From positions 575,374-639,373 of the forward strand of contig NW_015167069.1 of the NCBI RefSeq assembly GCF_001447785.1: a DNA stretch of 64,000 nucleotides, written 5' to 3'. Source of the stretch: Gekko japonicus (lineage: Eukaryota). A model generated the notes under the pieces. That model was not told where the DNA came from, made no database searches, and was given only the letters and a program-made list of their open reading frames with translations. This document shows positions 15,789 to 63,216 of the stretch, piece after piece; position 1 is the stretch's first letter, and each line of letters begins with the position of its first letter. The translations under genes were made by a program, and so were the position numbers.

Positions 15789-16734
15789 CCCATGCTGAAA
15801 GTAAGGATAGGGGGTGGGTTCAAGGAGGGAGTGATAGCAGCCCATTGGGAGCAAGAGTTGGCTGTCAGCCAGATCCTTATGGGGGAGGAGAGGGATTGGA
15901 TGGCTTGGTGGGGCCTCACCCCCAAAGGAGAAGACTTAATTAGGGAACTCAAGGTTGGCTGGGGAGGAAGGGCACAGGAGAAACATGGAGGGCTAGAGAG
16001 TGCAATAGGGAACCTGTGAGCAGGAGAGAGGGATTCCGGGGTCTGCCAACCCCCCTCCTGCTGCATCATCTGAGGCCACTGTCAAGCTCCCTAGCAAAGA
16101 AGTCACGCCCTAGAGGACTCTGCTTCACCCAGCTGGCACCCTGCGGACTCAGGGCCCAACAACCAGTATCCATGTTCTCTTAGGAATCTTGGCAATGATT
16201 TATGCATGGCTTTGGGGGGGGCTGATGACTCAAAGATACACTGCTATAGACTTCAGCAATGTGCATGACATAATGTCTGGGGAATGGAAGGCTAGGGATG
16301 ATTCCCTATGGATAAAAGCTTTCAGAGCTGCAAATAATCTGTGCATGTACAAAGACATTGTCAGTCCAAACTGATCACCAGCCAACAGCACCAGTCAGTA
16401 CTGTTTAGACAAATGATAAGGGTAGGCTTTTATTGGAATACAGCATTTCCTTATGACTGATTTATGTTTTTTGTGAGTGATCTAATTGTCTATTTAAACA
16501 ATTGCTGCTGGAGTGGAGCAGTTACAAGTAAGGATAGAAGAGTAATAGAATTCAGCTGGGCTGTGCAAAAAGCAAGTTGTGTTGTATTGCATGGTTAGTA
16601 AGGAATGCAGTACAACCATCTGCCGAACAGGAGGCTGAAGTTGGTTCCTTTTTCCCAGTTGCTTATTCATTCCTTATTCGCGTTTTATTCATGAATTCAT
16701 CCAAAACCACAGAGGAGAGTTTGAAAGCTCTGCA

Positions 16735-17851
16735 CACCAAAATAAGATTTGGACCCCCCAAACTTCATACACCCCCATGTTCAGCGAACTCTCCCCTTTG
16801 AGGGGACATATGCTGTGTCCTGGTTCCAAAGTGTGGTTCTTGTGCCAGCTGCTCCAAAGTTAGGTGCCCCCAGGACAATCACACAGGCAGATACTGGGGC
16901 CAAGCTGTACTCCAAACTAATCTTTGGACCACCCCAAAGGACTCATCCCCACACTCCATATCGTGCACACAGCACATGTCCCCTGCAAGATGACATACAG
17001 TGATGCCCAGTCCAAACACTGGTTCCGGAGCCACAGGCTTCCATTTCAGGTGCAAAAGATCTCAAATAAGGAACTGGTTTGAATTCAAATAAGATTTGAA
17101 TAAGGAACTGGTTTGACTGTTTGCCCCTACATCCCAGAATAAGGTTTGGACCACCACATGTCATACACCTCCATGTTCAGTGAACTATCCACTTCAAGGG
17201 GGCATGTGCTGTGTGCACGATATGGAGACTGTCCCCTGCAAGGTGACATACAGTGATACCCGGTCCAAACACTGGTTCTGATGCCATGACCTTCTATCTG
17301 GAGTGCCTCATGGAGGCCTGTATTAGAAAGAAGATTTGAATAAGGAAGTACCCCATACACCCAAAATAAAGACTGGATTGCCATATGTCATACACTTCCA
17401 TGTTCAGTGGACTCTCCCCTTTGAGGGAACATATGCCATGTATTGGTCCAAAGTGCGTTTTTTATGTCAGCTACTCCAAAGTGTGGTGCCCTAGGAAAAT
17501 CACACAGGCAGACACTGGGGCCAAGCTGCACCCCAAAACAATCTTTGAACCATCCCAACTGACACATCCCCAAACTCTGGAGACTGCCCCTAAAGGATGA
17601 CATATAGTGATGCCCGGTCCAAACACTGGTTCCGACGCCATGACCTTCTATTTGGAGTCCCTCACAGAGTCCTGTATTACAAAGAAGATTTGAATAAGGA
17701 AGTGTCCCCTGTACCCAAAATAAAGATTGGACCACCACATCTCATACACTCCCATGTTCAGAGGACTCTCCCTTTCGAGGCAACAAATGCCGTGTACTGG
17801 TCCAAAGCGTGGTTCTTGTTCCAGCTTCTCCAAAGTGTGGTGCCCCTAGGA
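16735..17851 (+). repeat. Satellite-like array of ~177-bp A/B monomers (~355-bp dimer)
   Basis: A monomers start near 16741, 17138, 17364 and 17719; B monomers near 16918 and 17540; an inverted partial copy lies at ~19337-19420. Confidence 0.85.
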
Positions 17852-18540
17852 CAGTGGTGGCGAACCTATGGCATGCGTGCTAGAGGGGGCACTCAGAGCC
17901 CTCTCTTGCGCCATTACCTCAGCTCCTCGACTCACCCAGTTTCTTGAAGGCATGGTGCACTGAAAATTTGCCGAGCCCCCTGGCGCTGGGCTAGGCGCAC
18001 ACCGGCCAGGATGTCTGCTGCTGCTGCTGCTGGTGCTGCTGCTGGGGGGGGGGCCCAGGCAGGACTGCTTCTTCCTCTTCCCACAAATCATGGCTGTGCT
18101 GCTGGCTGGCTGGGTCCTGATCTGGTGTCAGGCTGCCCCTTCCTGCTCTCTTGCTGGGGCACCTCTGCCTCTCTGCCGCGCCCGGGCCACCGCGCAAAAA
18201 TTGAAGAGAGGCGGCTGCGGGCAGGCAGGTGAGGAGGCGTTCACATTTCAGCGATGCAGGCCAGAGCCACTCTGACTTTTTCCTGTCCTCACCAAACAGG
18301 AGGAGGAGGAGACGGCCAAAGGAGAGCACCACGCGGGCGGGGAGAGGAGGAGGAGGAGCAAGCAGGCGGCTGGCCTCGGCCCCGCATGCCTCTCCAAGCA
18401 CATGCAGAGTGAGGGGCCACAAAAGCAGCCTGGATGGTAGTCCCACAAAGTCAGCTTCCCAACCAACAGATGCTCGGGTGGTTTTGGAGCCTGGCCAGAG
18501 GAGCCAAGGAGGGGCCTGGGAGGAGAGGTGCTTAGTGGTC
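17852..18540 (+). mobile_element. hAT element left end plus GC-rich body (right end missing)
   Basis: CAGTGGTGGCGAACCTATGGCA terminus preceded by CCCTAGGA (hAT-Charlie-like target). Confidence 0.65.
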
Positions 18541-18734
18541 CCAGGCAAGGGAGATCAAACCGCCTTGAGAAAATGGCTGCTTTGGAAGGTGGGCTCTATG
18601 GCATTATCCCCTGCAGAGGTCTCGCTCCCTCCCCAAACCCTGCCCTCCTCTGCTCAAACCCACCCACCCCCCAATTTGCAGCCTGGAGCTGGCAGTCCAA
18701 ATGCCTGTGTATCATTCACCCATCTTCATATTTT

Positions 18735-18918
18735 GCTTTCACTGCAAAAAGTTCTAGAAGATTGTTGAGGTGGGACTTCCCTTTGCAGAAGCCCTTTGGA
18801 TGCTTTTCCAGCAAGGTTCATTCTTCTACACATCTAATTTTGACAATGCTTTCCATCAATTTACCTGGCATAGAATTTAGTACAATAGGTCCAGAATTTC
18901 CTGGATCCTCTCTGCCCC
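18735..18918 (-). mobile_element. CR1 RT fragment
   Basis: Minus-strand remnants of the EDPGN..P..L...PGKLMESIVK and GFCKGKS.LNNLLE motifs. Confidence 0.75.
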
Positions 18919-19335
18919 TATTCAATCAATATGCAGAACATGTCATAAGGAAAGCTGGATTAGATGAAGATGAAGTGAAAATTGGCGGAAGGAACATTAA
19001 CAATTTTGAGATAAGCAGATGACCACACATTACTAGCAGAAAATAGTGAAGACTTGAAACGACTATTGATGAAGGTTAAAGCAGAAAAGTGCCAAAGCAG
19101 GATTATAGCTGAACATCAAGATGACAAAAGTAAGGACTACCGGGGAATTATACAACTTTAAGACTGACAATAAAGAGACTGAAATTGTTCAAGGTTTTCT
19201 GTTCCTTGGCTCCATCGTCAACCGAAAGGAAGATGACAGCCACGAATTCATCCAGAAGGAGAATGAGACTGTGGAGGGCATCCATGAAGGAGCTAGAAAA
19301 TATCCTTAAGTGTCAGGATTTGTTGCTGGCAATGA
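18919..19335 (+). mobile_element. RTE-clade (BovB-related) LINE RT fragment
   Basis: LFNQYAEHVIRKAGLDEDEVKIGGRNINN..ADD..LLAENSEDLKRLLMKVKAE, frameshifted. Confidence 0.9.
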
Positions 19336-21756
19336 GAGTCCAAACCTTATTCCAGGATGCAGTGGGCAAAGAGTCAAACCAGTTCCTTATTCAAATCCTT
19401 TTTTAAAAAATACAGGTTTCTTGGAATAAGGAACCAACTTCAGCCTCATCTGCCGAACACCAATGAATGAACAGATCAACAGACTAAACTATCACACCAG
19501 TCATCGAACAATCAGGTCTCTGTTTGCAAACAGTGAACAGGATGTGAGCCATACCAGTTGGTGCTTGATCATGGTGCTTGACACTGCAGATCAGCAAGCT
19601 CCTTTCCCCTCCCTTTCCCCTTCCCAGCTGAACTGCAATGTAAAGATACACTGTGGCTTAGCTGAAAATGGGAGGAGGCCGTTTAGTGAACTGGAAAGGG
19701 TGTGTGTGTGTGCATATTCTGTATACATGAATGCCTCATGCACAACACTCTGCAGTTCCTCCTTTGAGTCAAAATAAAATGAGGTTTCCCTTTCATGTGA
19801 CTTAAAGGGAACGCCCCAGGAGGCCCGTACAATGAGCATTACATCACATAGAAGACCCCTTTAAATGCAGGAACATGATGGCACCTGGTATTTTTGGCCA
19901 CTGTGTGACAGAGTGTTGGACTGGATGTGCCATTGGACTGATCCAACATTGGCTTCTCTTATGTTCTTATCTCCACTTGGAGGAAAAAATGTGGAAGCAT
20001 CTTGGGTGGCCTTTGGGTGGATGGTTGAATGGTCCCCAATTTCATTTCTTTTTTCTGTTTGTTATATTTTTGGCCCCCATTTTGGTTCTCAGGTTTTTAT
20101 TACTGGTTCTGTAGACTTGTGTGCACTGTGCGCAATAGTTTTATATAGCATTGAAACATACAGTGTGCATCCTGGACATATATAGGCAGAATGGTTTTTA
20201 GTGGCACAAAAATAACACTGAAAAATGCATGTCTTGCAGGGAAAATTCAATGCAACGAAACAGGAAATGGTGTGAAGTGAAAGAGTCACTGGATTAATGT
20301 GTATGAGGGAAAAGCAACAACTGAAACATGGATGGATAAGTCAAAATAACAGATGTGAGCAATTTAAAAGCATTCTTAAATGAGATAAACCACCGTGTGG
20401 AATATGAGAACAATACTACTGGCCTACCTTGTAGAGATGGTGTTAGGATTACAAAAAAAAAAAAGATAACGTGCATGTGCTTTAAACACTTGAAAGCATT
20501 ATGCAAATGCTCATTATAAAATAAATAGCGAATGAACCCCCATATGTGCTATGTTTTGCTATAAAGATTATTTTGAAACTAAATTTGCAGATTAATTAAG
20601 GATGTGTGTGCGTGTGTTCAAGCCTACCACATGTTTTGTAGAAAAACTTCTGGTCTCAAAGGGAAACTGGGCTCCACATACAGCACCTCAGGGGGGTAGA
20701 GTTGGCATTCATATGTAGAATGCAAGGGTGTTAATTGGTTTGACTTGGCTTTTTCAGTGTGAATTTTTTGGAAAAAAAATCATTCCATATGCTAATTAAA
20801 AGTGTGTCTTTGCCTATTAAGCCCTAGAGAAGACATTTGTTTTTTTTCCTCCTTTTAAGATTCTTTCAATAGAAAGAGAAGTCTTTCAACTGCATGCGCA
20901 TATCTTTGAATCCAAAGGAAATCTCTGAGGAAACATCTTCCCTCTGTGCAAATCTCAAAGAAAAGTAGTGATTTGTTGTTGTTGTTTTTAAGAAACTGAA
21001 TTCATTATTATCTTTAAAAATATAATTGCATTCATTTTATTTATTAAAAAGTCTCATTTTTTAAAAAAATAGAGGTTTCTCTAAAAATAGAGAAGCAGGC
21101 AAGTATGTTTCAGTTTCTAAATGAAAGGATGGATCGTATCTTTGATGGTAGTGAAATGTTTGGTGCTGCAGTTCATTTGGATACAACTGTCTTGCAGTGG
21201 ATCTGCAGGAAACGGGGGGGGGACAATATGAGCAATATTCAAGCAAGTAATCCTGTAAAATGAAGCTGAAACATAACCATCACCATTACAGGTGATTGCA
21301 AAGATTTAGTGGTGGATTTGGCACTGGCATAAAATTAATGTCCCCACATACAGGGTTGGATCCAACCTTCTGTTATTGCGGGTGAAAAAGGAAGGACCAC
21401 TTTGACCACTCAAAAAGACTATGCTGAGAATCATGGTGCCTCCATGTACAAAAACCATGCAGGATGGGAGCTATAGTAAGGAGGGGAATTAAGTGAGATC
21501 AATTGTAAAATTTGACTGGTTCCAGCCCATAGTGCTGAACCTCAGCTTTGTGATTGCTTACCCTGATACCAAGCACAAAATGTACATGTATAGTATTTTT
21601 GGTACATGAAGTGCCCTGTTCATATCAACAGAGACCCATTCCATGCCTATACAGAGCTGCCAAACAGAGAGGTACTAGAAGGACAAAATTCCAGGGCCTG
21701 TTGATTGGGCAAGTCCTGTGTTTTGCTTCCATATAATATTTAAGATAGGTCTAGGG

Positions 21757-28632: not shown

Positions 28633-28830
28633 AAGTGCTTTCAAGTTGCAGCCAAATTATGGTTGCCCATAAGGCAAGAGACGAACAGAAGTGGTTTGCC
28701 ATTGCCTGCCTTTGTGTAGCAACCCTGGACTTCCTTGGTGGTCTCCCATCCAAGTACTAGCCAGGGTCAACCATGTTTAGGTTCTGAGATCTCATGAGAT
28801 CTGGTTCATCTGGGCCATCCAGGTTAGGGG
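28633..28830 (-). mobile_element. 5S rRNA-derived SINE (SINE3 type) with RTE-like tail
   Basis: GGTCTCCCATCCAAGTACTAGCCAGG is the antisense of the 5S internal control region; the tail includes GGCAATGGCAAACCAC. Confidence 0.75.
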
Positions 28831-30673: not shown

Positions 30674-33099
30674 GCTCTCCCCTGGCTGCTACATCCTCAA
30701 GGGTGGGGAAAGAAGGACAACGTTTTTCACTGGGTTGGATCTGAGCCAGAGTGGAATTTGACTGCTAGGAAAGTCATCCCAAACTCAGAGCCAAAGTAGC
30801 ACAAACGTTTCAGGTCTCTCTCATATTCGTCAGATCTTGTGTTGAAAGGTGTGGGCCATAAGACTATGAAAATTACCTAACTGTACTGCTAGGTGATACC
30901 TGCATGCAGGAATCTAATTTCTAAGACCCTGTAGATTTTGGAAGAATGATAACTTGGCATATCACACTAGCAACATCTTAACAAGATATCTCCAAAAAGG
31001 CAAAAAGAAAATGAGTTCCAATAGGAATGGGGGGGGGGGTTTCCCCAGGAAAAGGGGACCAGAATACAGGAACTGTTCCTGGTAAATCAGGACAGTTGGT
31101 ACAGAGTGAAGAGACAGATTCAGTTGCAGTTGCAAGAGACATGGAATATAAACTTTGCATCCAGTTCTACCTAGGAAATACAAATTTACTGACTGAGATA
31201 AATTGCTACCCTAAACAACTATTTGTAAAACCATTCCAGACTCCATTCCTGTTTGAACCTTGCCAATATCTCTTTAGTCTATTTGCTGCCCACTTATCTA
31301 ACCAATGTCCTAGACAGAGCTGTCTATGATGACTCTCTTGTATACCAATATAGACATATTTTTTCTAGCCTTTGTATATATGTCTGTCCTTCTGTCAGCT
31401 ACTTAACAACTGTAATTTGAACAACAAATATCTCTCACTTCCATACTGTATGGTGGAGCCTTAGTCCACTACTCTAGCCATGATTAGTGTATACCATAAA
31501 AAACCCAAAGCATACCAATGGTACGGAATAGTGCCTCAGCATCTCACAAAAATTAGGCAAAGTGTACAGTCTGAAATATCTTTTACTTTATAACTCCACA
31601 GTTTGAAACAAAATTGTAGCCCAAATGGACTTTCATTATATGCATTTTTGAAAAGACAGGTCTGTGCAGATATTATATTCCCTGCCCAAGAATAAATTCC
31701 TGGATGTAGACATCCAGTGGAGGGCTGTGGTTTCTCCATGGAAAAGGAAATGTATTGTCTGAACATGCACAAAAAACAATATATGCCATTAACACTTTAT
31801 ATCAGTATGTGTCTTGAAAATGGGGGAAAACACAAGCACTGGTAAGGTAATCTAGAGAAATATTTCCTAGCGGTATAATTCTGAATGTGCCTATCACATT
31901 TTTTTTTTAAGTATCTTATGCTTTCTATAAGTAACTTAGGGTGGCATACATAGGGTTCTCTCCTCCTTTTTATCTTCATAAGAATCCCGCAGGCAGGTTA
32001 GGCTGAAATAAGCAACTGATCCATGCCACTAATAAGCTTCAGGTCTCAGAAATTGGGGTGCCAGCTTCAGGTTGGGAAATGGTGGGAAATGTCAGGGTAC
32101 AACCAGGGAGGGTGGGTTTTGGGAGGGGATGGACCTCAGTAGGATATAAGGCCATATTGTTTACCTTCCAAAGCAGCCATTTTCTCAAGGGGAACTGATC
32201 TCTGCTGTCTGGAGATCAGCTGTGATTCTGGAACATCTCCAAGCTCCACCTGGAGGTTGGCAACCCTGCTGATGGGTGAGTTGGACCTGGGTCTCCCCAA
32301 GTCAAAGTCCAGCACTTTAGCCTCTATATCAAACTGGCTCTTCTCATCACATGGCACACCAGGATCTGAACTGTCTACTTTACATTACGGTTTTATTTAA
32401 GTGTGATCTATGCCTCCTCTCCATTTTCAGGCCTGGTTTAGTCCCCAAAGCCATTCACTGCCCCCCTCCCCATTTGCCATTCATGATTCCCATTTGTCAA
32501 CATTTTCCTTCAGGTTAGGGTTCCCTCCAACAATTCCTTGTTATCTCTGTATCCTGAGTACATTTTAAACTTGCCCTTCTTTAAGGAAGCTCCAAGTAGC
32601 ATATGTGGTTCCCCATTCCTCATTCTATAATGTGAGGTAGTTGAGGCTGTCAAAAAGTGACTGGCCAATGCTTACCCAGCAACCTTTTCTGCAGAGTGGA
32701 AACTGGAGTCTGGGTGTCTTAGATCCTAGCATAACAGTCTACTCACTACACTACATGAGCTCTTAGGATCAGGTCATCTCAGAGGTCCAGAGGGGCCTGA
32801 TTTATGTCCAGCTTTTAAGGGCCCTACTCAAAATAATTTTTGAAACAAAATAAGGCATTGCAAAAGAAGAGTGAGACATAATTTGAATATTTTTAATTAA
32901 CAAATACTTCCCCCCCTAGTCATTTTTGAAGCCCCTCCCTTGAGCTTGAGTCCCAGGCCAGTTGACCCTCTGCCCCAAACTCTACTCTGGTGTCATGTAG
33001 GGAATGCGACAGTAGGTAAAATATGGCTACATGTTGAAGGCAAACAAAGACAATTTATCAGTGATTCCTAAACTGCTCACATAGGGTTCATGTAGTGAA

Positions 33100-34027: not shown

Positions 34028-34319
34028 CTTATATTTGGGGTTCAGAACCTAAAAAGGTTAGTCAAGAATAGAAGAGGACCAACTCTAAAAATCTAATTAT
34101 GAAACATACAAAAATATACATGTATTTATTCAACACAAATTAAAATAACAAATAAGGGCCCATTGTGTTGAATAAATACATGTATATTTTTGTATGTTTC
34201 ATAATTAGATTTTTAGAGTTGGTCCTCTTCTATTCTTGACTAACCTTTTTAGGTTCTGAATTCTAGGTTTTAGGTTCAGTTTTTTTCCCTTTTCTCTTTT
34301 TTGTCCTTATATTTGGGGT
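34028..34319. repeat. Foldback insertion: perfect 98-bp inverted repeat with a 14-bp TSD
   Basis: Arms 34041-34138 and 34163-34260 with a 24-bp spacer; CTTATATTTGGGGT at 34028-34041 and 34306-34319. Confidence 0.9.
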
Positions 34320-37578: not shown

Positions 37579-39443
37579 GCTGGTGTACTGTCTGCCTAAT
37601 GCACCAGCAGATGCCTTGCTACATCTGTATCGGGATGGGTGCTGGAGTACCCTAGACTACTGGTTAGCATGCAGTCAAATCTGGTTAGCATGCCGTCCAA
37701 TTAGCATGCAGTCAATATTTCAAGTTTAGTTTATTGTCTTAGCCATTGGCCATAACAACACAAAATAAATCAAAGCACAACCAACAGTATACATCAGTAA
37801 CTTACAGTAAGTCCTAGACCCAGTCTTATCTTTTTCGCCGCCAGTGCAAACAAAGCCATTCTGCTAGTAACATGTGCATCAATATCAGAGAGCAAGAAAA
37901 CGGTCAAATCCTGCTCTGAAATTCCATTATACAGAGGTACAATAGGATAAACAAACCTTTGCCTAAGTGGTTCATGCCATGAACATCTCAGAATGTAATG
38001 CACGACATCATCCACTTCACCCATACCACAGAGGCATATTCTGGAGGCGGCAGGGACACCCTGAAAGCGGCCAATACAAACCATTGAGGGTATGACGTGG
38101 AACCTTAGGGCAGTAAAAGCCCTTCTCAGCTCCAGAGTAGTTAGTTTCTCTAGATATACAGTCCTGCAATGATCTCTTTTAAAGATCTTATACAAGGGGG
38201 CTGTACGACAACTTACCAACACATGTCGGTTCAAAAGCCCATCCTTATTAAATACCCATTCCTTCAATTTAGACTTTTGGTTTTCGTTTATCAATAAGTC
38301 ATCGGGGATTGAGTAGTTAGTTTCTCTAGATATACAGTCCTGCAATGATCTCTTTTAAAGATCTTATACAAGGGGGCTGTACGACAACTTACCAACACAT
38401 GTCGGTTCAAAAGCCCATCCTTATTAAATACCCATTCCTTCAATTTAGACTTTTGGTTTTCGTTTATCAATAAGTCATCGGGGATTGAGTATTTCAGTAA
38501 AATAGAATTCAAGTGATCATCTAATCTTTTCGAGGATTTCAACAGCAATCCAAAACTTTGTACACCTAGAATATCCTGAGGTCGTTCTAAACATTTCCTC
38601 CAATACAAGAGGATTCTTACATTTGCCCTGGCTTTCAGGGATACCATACCCAGTTCAGCCCTCATCAACGCCACAGGTGAACCTTTGGGTAAGACCAAAA
38701 TCCGCCTTATAAAATAATTTTGCACAGTTTCTAGCAGGGACAGTAACGATTCGTCCCAACCCCAAATCTCTACCCCATACAGCATTGCTGGAATTATCTT
38801 GCTCATGTATAATTTAACAACCGGGTCGATCATACCTCCACCCCTAGAGAAGTAAAACTTCAACAAAGCCCCTAGATTGTTCATGGTAGCGGTCTTCAGT
38901 TGTGTGATATGGGGACGCCAGGAGAGGGTTTCTGAAAAGATTATACCCAGATATCTGTATGTGCTACATTGCTCAATTGGTGTACCAAGAATGCTCCAAA
39001 TGGATTTCTTGGGTCTTTTCCTAAAAACTAGCACTTTAGATTGGGCGTAGTTTATTTGCAGGGCTTCTGCCCTGCAATATTCACCCAGTTTATTAAGTAA
39101 CCTCCTCAGACCAATCTTGGTTACAGAGAGAAGAACCATGTCGTCCGCATACAAAAGGATTGGAACTTTGTATTGCCCTATGGCTGGTGGCATAAATTCA
39201 CTACCTTCCAAACTGGCAATTAGGTCGTTCAAATACAAGTTGAACAGGGTGGGAGCTAGCACACAACCCTGTTTCACTCCCTTGTGCACAGATATATCTT
39301 CCGTAAGCTGGTGTGCTGTCTGCCTAATGCACCAGCAGATGCCTTGCTACATCTGTATCGGGATGGGTGCTGGAGTACCCTAGACTACTGGTTAGCATGC
39401 AGTCAAATCTGGTTAGCATGCCGTCCAATTAGCATGCAGTCAA
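37579..39443 (+). repeat. 137-bp direct repeats (37579-37715, 39307-39443) flanking the RTEX copy
   Basis: Identical except for one A/G. Confidence 0.95.
37716..39306 (-). mobile_element. 5'-truncated RTEX-clade LINE (RT C-terminal half + CCHC finger)
   Basis: ORFs 38291-39289 (GVKQGCVLAPTLFNLY, LYADD, YRYLG) and 37794-38345 (RICLCG..DVVHYILRC); 3' end GGCC..AATAAACTAAACTTGA; no stops other than from an internal duplication frameshift. Confidence 0.85.
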
Positions 39444-45737: not shown

Positions 45738-45952
45738 TAGGGTTGTGAAATCTGGTTGAAAAATTCCTGGAGATTTGGGGGTGGAGCCCAGGGAGGGAGG
45801 GGTTGGGACAGGAGAAGGACCTCAAAAGGTATAATGCCATAGAGTCCACCCTCCAAAACATCAATTTTCTCCAGGGGAAATGACATCTGTTGCCTGCAGA
45901 TCAGTTGTAGTTCCAGGAGATCTCCAGCCCCACCTAGACATTGGCAACACTA
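45738..45952. mobile_element. hAT MITE (TAGGGTTGCCA family)
   Basis: TIRs; TSD GTCTCCCT/ATCTCCCT. Confidence 0.8.
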
Positions 45953-46845
45953 ATCTCCCTTCCACCGTTTCAAATGCATTTGATGTATCTGGAATATTGA
46001 GTAATGGAGTCCCTAGTGAGTGTCTGATATCTTAATGTCAGACATGCCCAAGATACTGCTGAGAAGAAAATAAAGAAGTGTACCTCATATGTTCCCTGTC
46101 CACTTACATGTGGCTGCCACCACAAACTCTGCAGGAAAATTGGGGAGAAGGAGTTGAGAGGGAGGGAGGGAGAGGAGGAGTCATAAGGCTCACCTTCCTA
46201 TTGAAGGAGAGCATTACCAATTGCCAGAGTCACAGATAGGGAAGGAATAGACTTCAAAGGCTTCCTTAATGCACTGCTTCCACTTTGAAAACAAGACCAG
46301 GTAATCCAGAACTCCAAAAAAAAAAAAAAAAAAATCCAGGGAGAAATTCAGATGAGAAGAATTTCATAAGCATGCCTAAAAATGTTCTGAAGGCTTGAAT
46401 GGCCCTACTTTATAGCTGATGGCTTCTGTAGTTCTCCTGGTTGTTTAAATATGCCATGTTCAGTTCAGTCCCTCTTATGGTCTTTAGAGAAAAGCATTTC
46501 AGTCTCATCATATGCAAAAGGTCAACCAGATTATTGTCAGGGACCTCAATTAAAAGGCCATCACTATTTATATAAAGGAACTGATAAGTAAGCTTAAAAT
46601 AGCCCCCTTTTCAATTGAAATTGAGATGCATGCAACAAACCTCAGAGGATCCCAAGTCCAAGTTTTATCATTTAGCATTTCTTTTGACAGACTCCAGATT
46701 CATGTATCTTTATTTGCCTCCCACTCCTTGCTTACAATATGCATTATTTTACTTATGGCTAGCTATCATGCTTGGCCCCCAATGCAACTCACAGCTTCAT
46801 ATTTACAGCACAGCTCTCTCTCTCTGTGTGTGTGTGTGTGTGTGT

Positions 46846-56730: not shown

Positions 56731-56918
56731 TATTTCAAGGAAAGTTTTCAAAAGTCAGCAAAAGTTGCTGCAAAAGCTCGCTTTGGTTAGATTTGTACTT
56801 TGCCTGATTCAATTTACCATCGCATTTCTCCTAGCCCCTCTTGCTTAAAGAATTCACGTAGAAATGTAAGGGGGGGAGATGTGAGCTAGCTCCCTCCCCC
56901 TCCGTCGATACCGTTTAG

Positions 56919-57100
56919 CAGCGCTGTTTTTGTAGCAGGAACTCCTTTGCATATTAGGCGACACACCCCTAATGTAGCCAATCCTCCAAGAGCTTACAGA
57001 GCTCTTCTTACAGGAGCTACTGTAAACTCTTGGAGGATTGGCTACATTAGGGGTGTGTCGCCTAATATGCAAAGGAGTTCCTGTTACAAAAAAAGCCCTG
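56919..57100. mobile_element. Near-perfect palindromic hAT-type MITE nested in the L1 5' UTR
   Basis: Arms of ~80 bp are reverse complements; CAGGGCTTTTTT-type TIR shared with 61786-62169 and 62738-63216. Confidence 0.85.
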
Positions 57101-57555
57101 CAGTGTTTGGGGCTTCGGATATACGCTTTGCCAAATAACCAGTCAAAAGGGAATTAGCACTCATGCTTCGTTCCACGCCTGTTGCACAGGTAGGGAGAGC
57201 TTTATTTTTGTTGGATCACTTGTTTGCTTGCCCGGTGTACGCCTCTTGGTGCCATAATGGCACCGTGGCAACGGGACCTATCGGAGCTCAGAGGTGCCTC
57301 AATCCCTTGACTGCAGCCTCGGGAGAAGGAACCTCCAGTGCCCCAGGTTGGGAGTCCCCTACAAGGACTCTGGGGGGGGGATCCGGATCAACTGCCCCCC
57401 CTCCCATCCACCATGTCATGGGCCACTCCTTTTGGAGCACCGAAGGAGTGTGCCCACCATGGAAGTCACCGAAACTGGAAGTCCCAAACTTTGTGGTTTG
57501 AATTGCACTTGGACCGCCAGAAGGACAATACAGTGTGTTACTGCTGGGTTAAACA

Positions 57556-61785: not shown

Positions 61786-62169
61786 CAGGGCTCTTTTTGT
61801 AGAAAAAGCCCAGCAGGAACTCATTAGCATAATAGGTCACACCCAACAGCAGAAACCCATTAGCATATTAGGCCACAACCTTGACAGCACAGCTCATTAG
61901 CACATTAGGCCGCACCCCCATGTTACCATCCAGCCACACCCACCTTTTGCTTTTTATTCTGTTTACCTTGTTTGTTGTCAAAACCCAGGCCTTTTTTTGT
62001 AGCAGGAACTCCTTTGCATGTTAGGCCACACAACCCTAAAGTAACCAATCCTAATGAGTTTCTGCTGTTGGGTGTGGCCTATTATGCTAATGAGTTCCTG
62101 CTGGGCGTGGCCAACTCGGGAGCCAGCTGGAACTCCGTTCCTGTGCGTTCCTGCCCCAAAATAGCCCTG
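61786..62169. mobile_element. Composite/foldback hAT MITE with CTCATTAGCAT repeats
   Basis: Two CAGG(G/C)CT starts (61786, 61986) and one right TIR; arms partly reverse complementary. Confidence 0.7.
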
Positions 62170-62737
62170 CAAATAAATACATTCATGCTAACACTTTCCC
62201 CTCTTTGCTATATCTCCAATTATTTTTAAACTACTATCAATGTGAACTCAGGTTCCCCAAATGCCTCTACAGTTGACACACTTTTGGAGAGAAAACAGGC
62301 TATTCTTTTGCTGCTTGCTGGTCATTTGATGTCAAAGCAAAGTACGAAAATTGATTGCTGGTGGTGGTGGGGTTGTGCCAAGTTGATGGGCCAGGCCCTT
62401 GCTTCTGTGGTTCCACCCTCCGAGAGTCACTTCCCATTGTTATCTCCTGAAATGTTTCATACACCATGTTCCTGTTTCATCCTGTGATCCTCCTTATGTT
62501 TCACAAGGATTTATTTTTATCTAGTCATTCTCCTCAAGGCACAGTGCATTTCCGCTGAGATGAAAGTTCAAACATATGCTGTCCTGGGTTTCATCTGAGA
62601 TGAGATTGACAAAAATAAGTTGACTCTCTTGGAACAGCTGGAATAAAATACGTTGACAGAGCATCTAAGGGTCCCTCAGTTGACAGCCCAACATTGGCAA
62701 ACAATAGGCCTTTAGCTTCAATTGTAAGTGTTAAAAC

Positions 62738-63216
62738 CAAGGCTATTTTTGGGCAGGAACGCACAGGAATGGAGTTCCGGCTGGCTCCAGAGTTGGCCAC
62801 GCCCACTACAGCCAAAACCTCTGCGTGCGCGGCTACAGAGGGAAGGCCTGGAGAGCAACACCCTCCCCAGCGACTCCAATGCGGGCAGGCTGGGGGGGGG
62901 GCTGGAAGGATCAGGGAAGCATTTAAATGTCTCCCCATGCCTCCTCTGGTCTGTCCAAAGGGCCGGCTTGCCCAGGCACCCCACAGCTATGGGGCGCCTG
63001 GGCAAGCCAATGGAAGGCAGTTTAAACTGCCTTCCCTTTCCTTCGAGGGGAGGGCTTGCCCGGGCAAGCCAAGGGAAGACATGGGGTGTGGCCTAATATC
63101 CTAATGAGTTGTACTGTCATGGGTGTGGCCAAATATGCTAATGCATTTCTGCAGTTGGGTGTGGCCTATTATGCTAATGAGTTCCTGCTGGGCTTTTTCT
63201 ACAAAAAAAAGCCCTG
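62738..63216. mobile_element. hAT MITE with ATGCTAATGAG repeats
   Basis: TIRs plus a perfect 8-bp TSD GTTAAAAC. Confidence 0.9.

Follow-up and report, generated by a model that had tools for sequence, protein, structure and literature searches.

What kind of element is the 2.8-kb stretch with inverted ends that lies in this window (the whole 64-kb stretch of DNA analysed here), and did it carry host DNA with it? The element itself, with its 28-bp inverted ends and flanking direct repeat, is real, and the stretch is likely one insertion of a non-coding, foldback-type transposon of several hundred copies in a probable lizard genome. Its middle, however, is single-copy by the depth of its hAT part and likely consists of one later insertion and a patch of old host DNA. 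The features are listed in Table 1.

Table 1. Features of the element and of its target site (positions in the window)
Feature	Position	Strand	Basis or remark
Direct repeat, left copy, 13 bp (holds the TSD)	16617..16629		Repeat search
Extra G	16630		Mutated last TSD base (13-bp reading) or first base of the element (11-bp reading)
Left TIR, 28 bp	16631..16658	+	Inverted-repeat comparison, window BLAST
Left subterminal spacer containing further TIR core motifs (16658, 16669-16670)	16659..16736	+	No counterpart on the right arm
Left-arm tandem array, 354-bp unit, about 3.2 units	16737..17851	+	Self-comparison and read depth
Local 36-bp inverted pair, 92%	16954-16989 / 17192-17227		At a rearranged unit junction
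8-bp site CCCTAGGA (nnnTAnnn) directly before the hAT-like piece	17844..17851	+	Unit 3 has an identical 8-mer at the equivalent place (17489)
One-ended hAT-like element, precise left terminus, GC-rich low-copy interior	17852..18545	+	Sequence and depth
Truncated MITE piece (host MITE about 215 bp)	18545..18702	+	Comparison with window copies
Decayed internal RT fragment, presumably of a CR1-type LINE	18702..18913	-	Protein match
Frameshifted RT-like piece from a multi-copy repeat, cut where it joins the arm	18915..19337	+	Weak RT match and depth of about 400
Right arm, about 80 bp of the 354-bp unit, inverted relative to the left arm	19338..19419	-	Self-comparison
Right TIR, 28 bp	19420..19447	-	Inverted-repeat comparison, window BLAST
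Direct repeat, right copy, 13 bp	19447..19459		First C also closes the 28-bp TIR

A preliminary description of this DNA had given the element a 28-bp TIR at both ends, and this was borne out: the two TIRs are complementary at 26 of 28 positions (BLAST E 2.6e-5 against the window). At up to three mismatches, the outer 20 bases occur at two sites only in the 64 kb (chance mean 0.03), and all six occurrences of the exact 10-bp TIR core in the 64 kb lie within the element. Three of the exact core copies sit in the 354-bp units in reverse orientation (17098, 17338 and 17692); the motif is common to TIRs and units. The earlier proposal that the tandem unit is part of the element is supported. Both ends are alike for 28 bp and then diverge, which would fit the pattern of subterminal binding-site arrays.

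In the left array, unit 2 is internally deleted, unit 4 is interrupted by the hAT-like piece, and the units differ from each other by 16-23%. In the right arm, 69 bp (19338-19406) align with 17151-17084 at 88%. The element thus combines inverted arms, internal tandem repeats and a motif shared with the terminus, and the TIR pair and the inverted tandem arms support the earlier view of a foldback-like TIR element whose arms are internally repetitive. It had also been stated that both arms run into the same inverted satellite; the right arm does so directly, but the left arm only after a spacer of about 75 bp with core motifs. In reads of other copies, 16956 is joined to 17223, and the local 36-bp inverted pair probably arose in this copy alone, by template switching. 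No tRNA genes were found. SINE-derived gecko satellites, compared by unit length alone, have units of 67-151 nt, against 354 here (PMC10702118).

The sequence ATCTGCCGAACA is found exactly at 16618 and 19448 and nowhere else in the window. Among 200,000 random position pairs, 75 had an exact repeat of 9 bp or longer within 3 nt of both ends, and the TIR together with the direct repeat is well beyond chance. The direct repeat resembles target sequence of the host. The 12-bp repeat of the preliminary description is therefore exact on both sides, but the repeat is really 13 bp long, and a 12-bp TSD is not established: since the extra G separates the direct repeat from the left TIR, 12 bp requires an indel, whereas 13, 11 or 9 bp require one substitution each. 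In a simple model of geometry alone, the 13-bp TSD, which is above the 8-11 bp of MULEs, receives 0.57-0.72, and the 12-bp reading 0.05-0.18. A CAG terminus with a 5-bp TSD was rejected by reasoning, as it would require eight coincident bases and an indel.

A contig of a relative (X5 record 24) tracks the right flank from 19447 to 19864 with 8.4% difference, and its match to the window stops precisely where the direct repeat lies. It has 157 further letters beyond 19447, which were not placed on the right TIR; if they are left flank, they would reach 16460, and the neighbouring X5 contig ends at 16499. The record leaves the window as an empty site would and may be such a site; the empty-site join is not among the 15 of 778 joints listed, and the count of X5 joints is incomplete. 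Runs X3 and X5, with small word shares (0.11 and 0.09), contain orthologous flank contigs that are 4-8% diverged.

Read depth was obtained from 4 of the 19 runs (X2, X4, X6, X7 and X9-X19 were left out). In raw reads, the 354-bp units amount to about 770-1,830 copies per genome. The left terminal 75 bp amounts to about 160-840 copies, varying with the assumed flank depth and baseline; the left end is probably at hundreds of copies, and as the bin to the left of the element is also repetitive (depth 57), the left-end depth is not cleanly separated from it. The upper bound for the right TIR, about 33-78 copies, is far below the figure for the left end, an asymmetry that is unexplained. Raw-read depth of the left array is about 500-640 in five of seven bins and 53 and 116 in the other two, and depth over the arms is hundreds of times baseline and falls at the right TSD. 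The raw-read depth of the arms thus agrees with the earlier claim of a multi-copy family. Because the copy ratio implies few units per end, a dispersed element fits better than a long satellite. Furthermore, the family is at high depth in organisms B and C too, and is thus older than the split.

The middle begins with a piece that we take to be of the hAT family. Its start at 17852 is precise and directly follows an 8-bp site which, as the same 8-mer is present in unit 3, is native to the unit; no matching far end was found in the window. The left side agrees with a Buster-type element (8-bp nnnTAnnn target, CAG terminus), and the far end and the second target copy are missing. Of the one-ended hAT proposed earlier, the hAT-like start and the absence of a far end in the window stand, but the family label remains our assumption. 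The piece had also been counted as cargo. With its exact start at an nnnTAnnn site of the arm, it is likely a nested insertion in unit 4 that lost its far end, not cargo. The target consensus of Buster-type hATs is nnnTAnnn (PMC3517528). The depth of the X1 contig over the hAT interior is 69.7, against 73.8 and 73.3 for the flank contigs; its raw reads are at 1.7 times baseline, and other copies are 16-17% diverged.

The rest of the middle is a block of about 0.8 kb. The window contains three full copies of the MITE at other places; compared with them, the piece in this block is 62-68 nt short at its start and differs by 25-32%, and they differ among themselves by 24-28%. The minus strand of 18746-18913 matches a bird retrotransposon RT (36% identity, E 2.7e-7), and we presume that this fragment belongs to the CR1 clade. 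The plus-strand fragment that follows is read here, again as an assumption, as RTE-type; its protein searches gave no significant match (E 0.038 against another RT in the window), and those of the other middle pieces gave none beyond the bird RT. A repetitive nematode protein, P0001, was also hit by a middle piece, but only by chance, and it did not align back. In the patchwork described earlier, the truncated MITE piece and the minus-strand RT are thus confirmed, but not the RTE label. Likewise, the statement that the cargo is all much more decayed applies to the MITE (25-32%) and the CR1-type fragment, but is not shown for the RTE (12-18%) and hAT (16-17%) pieces, which equal the 12-18% of the arm; these last divergences come from the longest pieces only and hence are biased to diverged copies. 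The divergence of the MITE piece is that of ordinary host copies, whereas the TIRs differ at 2 of 28 positions, an age contrast based on two mismatches in 28 bases. Since the block is cut within a repeat at both ends, one filler event suffices for it. The block looks like older host DNA and is likely repair filler, and its capture is plausible. BLAST against the 64-kb window found no donor for the middle, and the depth across junctions in 18545-19337 is inseparable from that of its repeat families.

On these observations we favour, with some confidence, a copy of a non-autonomous, foldback-type cut-and-paste DNA transposon, which has short inverted ends and arms of 354-bp repeats with the end motif, and in which the centre was swapped in this copy alone by a nested hAT and then by break repair that added about 0.8 kb of old host DNA. 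The element showed no transposase, nor did a scan of five internal ORF pieces yield a transposase family. A transposase supplied in trans would bind the repeated core motif and cut with a long stagger of 9-13 bp, as in Mutator/Foldback elements. The element may have landed at the present site after the split from organism C, the flanks of which differ by 6-8% from the window. A hAT would have inserted into unit 4, and a break in the repetitive arms would have been mended by template switching, at the cost of the far end of the hAT, the original centre and the greater part of the right arm, and the MITE-half/CR1/RTE block would have been copied in. The hAT insertion and the repair may precede or follow the jump to the present site.

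One alternative, which we regard as unlikely, is the same transposon without capture: an old copy gained CR1, MITE, RTE and hAT serially, was trimmed by deletions, and moved here late or was always here. The middle is composed of repeat pieces only, the hAT piece looks nested, the family predates the split, the arm units are well diverged from each other, and no donor appeared in the window, all of which this explanation would accommodate. However, it needs at least three further nested insertions and two deletions inside the MITE and the RTE, against one filler event, and the likely absence from organism C allows little time at the site.

A product of a Penelope-like retroelement is a good deal less probable. 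The 354-bp units would then be pseudo-LTRs in partial tandem with an inverted far copy, and host DNA would have been placed between them by an RT acting in trans. The unequal abundance of the two ends would fit. However, the 28-bp terminus is present at both ends with divergence right after it, and the element has no Rfam match (a chance-level hit lies near it, and a weak 5S-like hit elsewhere in the window). The 354-bp unit folds no better than shuffles (z -0.05). CTGANGA, the hammerhead core motif, is absent from both strands of 16600-19460. As far as the accessible accounts go, Penelope-like elements have tandem and inverted structures with a 30-40-bp tail, and in Adineta 8-10-bp TSDs and captured sequences between pLTRs; the absence of a hammerhead is not decisive, since Naiad elements are without canonical ones (PMC3846280, PMC8557442).

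Slightly more improbable again is a composite jump, in which the ends came from two neighbouring copies, the left from one and the right from the other, and were excised with the intervening host DNA, the whole unit being trimmed by deletion later. A single TSD around two unequal arms, an old and host-like middle, and ends of unequal abundance agree with it, but both inner ends and the far end of the hAT are missing, which requires extra deletions, and the arms face each other as in one foldback element. Finally, a Pack-type family with a fixed 12-bp TSD that moves this host-DNA cargo again and again is very improbable: intact termini and a TSD do enclose an older block, and the insertion likely followed the split from organism C, but the hAT interior has single-copy depth, so that there is no amplified Pack family, and the 12-bp reading scores poorly.

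Returning to the foldback transposon with a replaced centre, the undescribed foldback family proposed earlier, spreading a satellite and host DNA, stands as a multi-copy family with a tandem unit but not as a spreader of host DNA, for there is no sign of cargo spread in the read depth of the hAT interior. A stronger form of the proposal remains doubtful, namely an undescribed lizard-lineage family of several hundred copies with 13-bp TSDs that was still jumping after a split of close species and moved this copy with its host-DNA filler. If it were true, the autonomous partner would represent a new lineage with long TSDs, or else the first Mutator/Foldback transposase to be verified in a vertebrate. 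In the accessible part of a 2019 survey, no vertebrate MULE transposase is verified and the vertebrate MuDR entries of Repbase are doubted (PMC6446971). In three lizard genomes, about half of the repeats are unclassified (PMC5381603). No description of the family was found in a literature search (subscription journals and Repbase Reports lie outside its coverage), and 12 of the 13 supplementary files of PMC6050309 do not mention MULE, MuDR, Mutator, Academ or Merlin. The TIR patterns had no match in metagenome and viral contigs, nor the tandem-unit pattern in metagenome contigs, nor the left arm in phages, collections that are not expected to contain vertebrate DNA.

Foldback arms, tandem repeats borne by transposons and single-copy Pack-TIRs are an anatomy already known, and in carrying host DNA this copy is nothing unusual; the possible importance lies in the host and the enzyme. 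With its several hundred copies and its likely recent movement, a long-TSD family of this kind offers a direct way to the TSDs and to the coding partner. Among vertebrate elements, Ricksha has a captured retroviral piece inside, and Xmix, the TSD of which is short, is of another superfamily. By description only, Ricksha (eutherian, MuDR in Repbase) is a vertebrate non-autonomous precedent (PMC5753468), and Xenopus Xmix/Xstir a vertebrate TIR element that gave rise to tandem repeats (PMC9659126). AcademH and IS481EU are also eukaryotic DNA transposons whose TSDs are long (9-10 bp, and about 15 or 24 bp), likened here by TSD length alone; the accessible text gives 11-13 bp for neither (PMC10045372). 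Tm1/Phantom and Rehavkus of the Mutator/Foldback group share composite, internally repetitive TIRs, unequal unit numbers in the arms, a long TSD, and mostly non-autonomous copies with nested insertions; they differ in the TSD of 9 bp (8-11 across MULEs), and membership is defined by the transposase, which was not seen here (PMC3169594, PMC6446971, as far as accessible).

There is a resemblance to Tetris and to the single-copy Pack-TIRs of animals. Cargo capture had been considered mainly a plant matter, but 370 Pack-TIRs were reported across 100 animal genomes; in the accessible text these are mostly single-copy products of gap filling, and over half lie within 15 kb of the donor (PMC8277862). 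They likewise hold foreign DNA in a TIR element, likely through gap filling by template switching, but there the parental non-TE sequence was identified, whereas here the filler is old repeat debris with no donor in the window (PMC8277862). Tetris of Drosophila virilis, with its TIR-220 satellite, is described with TIRs of up to 1.7 kb, 220-bp units and 8-10-bp TSDs (PMC4079207); the present element has a 28-bp terminal match, 354-bp units, a 13-bp direct repeat (TSD 13, 11 or 9) and a vertebrate host, and its read depth suggests few units per end instead of long arrays.

The foldback-type transposon insertion is real: TIRs, a flanking duplication, inverted repetitive arms that are multi-copy, and a single-copy hAT-like interior were all observed. 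When up to three mismatches were allowed, the outer 20 bases of the TIR matched the window at two places, both of them TIR ends (chance mean 0.03). The 12-mer direct repeat of the preliminary description was found again, with exact copies in the window solely at 16618 and 19448. Because some 12-bp direct repeat is expected by chance within 5 kb (expectation 0.75), the weight of this repeat lies in its position; an exact repeat of at least 9 bp, at most 3 nt from both ends, was obtained for just 75 of 200,000 random position pairs. The repeat is actually 13 bp long, and a G at 16630 separates its left copy from the left TIR.

Coordinates of the element, its parts and other features of the window
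Feature	Position	Strand	Observation
TIR pair	16631-16658 / 19420-19447		26/28 complementary
Flanking direct repeat	16617-16629 / 19447-19459		13 bp
Left-arm array	16737-17851		354-bp units, about 3.2 of them; shared segments differ by 16-23%
Right arm	19338-19419		inverted 354-bp unit; 88% over 69 bp to 17084-17151
MITE/RT block	18545-19337		both ends cut within a repeat
Host MITE, full copies	2500-2712, 32055-32270, 45738-45955		about 215 bp
Direct repeat left of element	15799-15810 / 16526-16537		exact, 12 bp, copies 727 bp apart; within chance for 5 kb; possibly the TSD of another insertion
Left flank	about 16480-16630		moderately repeated (depth 57 for 16404-16554); in other copies 16505 is joined to 16588; contigs from two organisms both stop at 16499; no second copy within the window
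Short repeat	19876-19970		extremely abundant (bin raw depth about 37,000), among the commonest repeats in the reads
5S rRNA-like match	28722-28818	minus	partial, Rfam, 42.8 bits (barely over cut-off); likely a pseudogene or the head of a 5S-derived SINE
Perfect inverted repeat	34041-34260		98 bp, 24-base loop, AT-rich; resembles either a hairpin MITE of very recent origin or a recent inversion-duplication
Non-LTR retrotransposon RT frame	37794-39346	minus	350 aa; Pfam RVT_1, E 2.4e-15
Tandem duplication	38135-38491		exact, 176 bp, near the 3' end of that RT frame
Hairpin	56918-57101		82 bp, 95%; likely another non-autonomous TIR element
Inverted pair	61794-63207		125 bp, 90%, flanking minisatellite-rich DNA; likely another non-autonomous TIR element

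Every placement of the ends was enumerated to read the TSD. The 12-bp TSD proposed earlier requires an indel, whereas three symmetric readings, of 13, 11 and 9 bp, each require one substitution: with ends at 16631/19447 the final base is G vs C, with ends at 16630/19448 the TSD is perfect and the substitution is in the terminal base (G vs T), and with ends at 16629/19449 the TSD is also perfect. In a simple likelihood model of our own, which uses one copy and has no prior on TSD length, 13 bp obtained 0.57-0.72, 11 bp 0.17-0.27, 12 bp 0.05-0.18 and 9 bp 0.01-0.05. The odds of the 11- and 9-bp readings are raised, since MULE TSDs are given as 8-11 bp in PMC6446971.

Six exact copies of the TIR's 10-bp core are present in the 64 kb, none of them outside the element. 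The left spacer, the right arm and the right TIR hold one each, and the array holds three in reversed orientation; the left TIR's own copy has one mismatch. As the core is restricted to the element and present in the array, the tandem repeat belongs to the element. By analogy with Tetris and Galileo, as described in PMC4079207, the core is a putative transposase binding site. The 354-bp unit showed no folding signal (z -0.05) and no match to Rfam, and a hammerhead core was not found in it.

The repeat types of the window point to a gecko-like lizard as the probable host. Four of 19 sequencing runs were compared with the window. In one of them, X1, two flank contigs and the hAT interior show 99.5-100% agreement with it; X1 possibly has a connection with the source of the window itself and was not counted as independent support. 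In the raw reads of X8 (1,675 million letters; baseline 1.6, the mean of four low bins), depth over the array was about 500-640 in five of seven bins, and 53 and 116 in the other two. Summed over bins, the depth corresponds to about 770 copies of the unit if the 1.6 baseline is used, and to 1,830 if coverage is 0.67-fold, which assumes a genome near the 2,455 million contig letters of X1. The left terminal 75 bp has 160-840 copies, depending on the share of its bin assigned to the flank, and the right TIR at most 33-78. With a few units per end, a dispersed element fits rather than a long satellite. As to the difference in number between left and right ends, typical copies may carry a left-type arm at both ends. 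The arms also have high contig depth in the related organisms B and C; thus, the family predates their split.

In organism C, the right TIR does not adjoin the right flank. Record 24 of run X5 (572 letters) aligns to 19447-19864 with 8.4% differences, and its other 157 letters run leftwards and were not placed on the right TIR. The 13-bp repeat is therefore probably not a constant component of the element. With an empty site, the alignment should break off exactly at 19447, because the 13-bp repeat would take its first bases from the left flank. If the 157 letters are left flank, they would extend to 16460; the adjacent X5 contig ends at 16499, near position 16470, which a 30-base overlap would give. 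The empty-site joint itself was absent among the matches listed (15 of 778 joints, those of X5 being incompletely counted). We infer an empty site in organism C and, with it, the direction of change.

The block from 18545 begins, after the hAT-like piece, with a MITE piece. Compared with the window's three full copies, this piece is short of the initial 62-68 nt and differs by 25-32% (24-28% among the full copies). A minus-strand RT fragment, which we take to be CR1, resembles a bird retrotransposon RT containing Pfam RVT_1 (36%, E 2.7e-7). The block closes with a frameshifted RT-like fragment on the plus strand, presumably RTE, with a depth of about 400; searches gave nothing significant for it, and a match to another RT in the window reached E 0.038. 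No donor for the block was present within the window. The block is likely host DNA captured by the element, and its age exceeds what the 2-in-28 TIR difference, an imprecise figure, would suggest. The view that the middle is more decayed than the TIR holds for the MITE piece and the CR1-type fragment. For the RTE-labelled and hAT-like pieces, the distance to their relatives does not exceed that between the arms and theirs (12-18%, among the matches listed and for the longest pieces only).

The hAT-like piece, formerly regarded as cargo, is likely nested instead. It starts precisely at 17852, directly after the 8-mer CCCTAGGA, which is native to the unit, being also found at the corresponding position of unit 3 (17489), and agrees with the Buster-type nnnTAnnn consensus in PMC3517528; the start thus resembles a transposition junction. 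Its far end was not found in the window. The interior is single-copy (X1 contig depth 69.7 vs 73.8 and 73.3 in the flanks; 1.7 times baseline in raw reads), and other copies are 16-17% diverged among the matches listed.

A probable explanation is cut-and-paste insertion, a nested hAT and template-switch repair replacing the centre. Once the lineage of organism C had separated, a transposase acting in trans, with a long staggered cut, would have inserted the element at the present site; a hAT would have nested into it, and repair would have replaced the centre. A transposon with nested insertions and deletions but no capture seems unlikely, for it requires three insertions and two deletions against one simpler filler event. 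Although Penelope-like elements can make similar tandem and inverted structures with captured DNA (PMC3846280 and PMC8557442), such an origin is improbable, and so is a composite jump of the ends of two neighbouring copies. Least credible is an amplified Pack family; the scrambled middle is probably a one-off.

No description of this foldback family was found in the openly accessible literature searched, and it is probably an uncurated family of an already known kind. The parts of the element have vertebrate precedents, since Ricksha is listed in Repbase as a human MuDR (PMC5753468) and, in Xenopus, a tandem repeat arose from Xmix (PMC9659126). The survey PMC6446971 found no verifiable vertebrate MULE transposase. 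The main interest of the element is its TSD length and its enzyme. The element behaves like Tetris (PMC4079207) and the Tm1-type foldback elements (PMC3169594), and in its middle it is similar to the single-copy Pack-TIRs of animals, of which 370, mostly gap-filling products, were counted across 100 genomes (PMC8277862).
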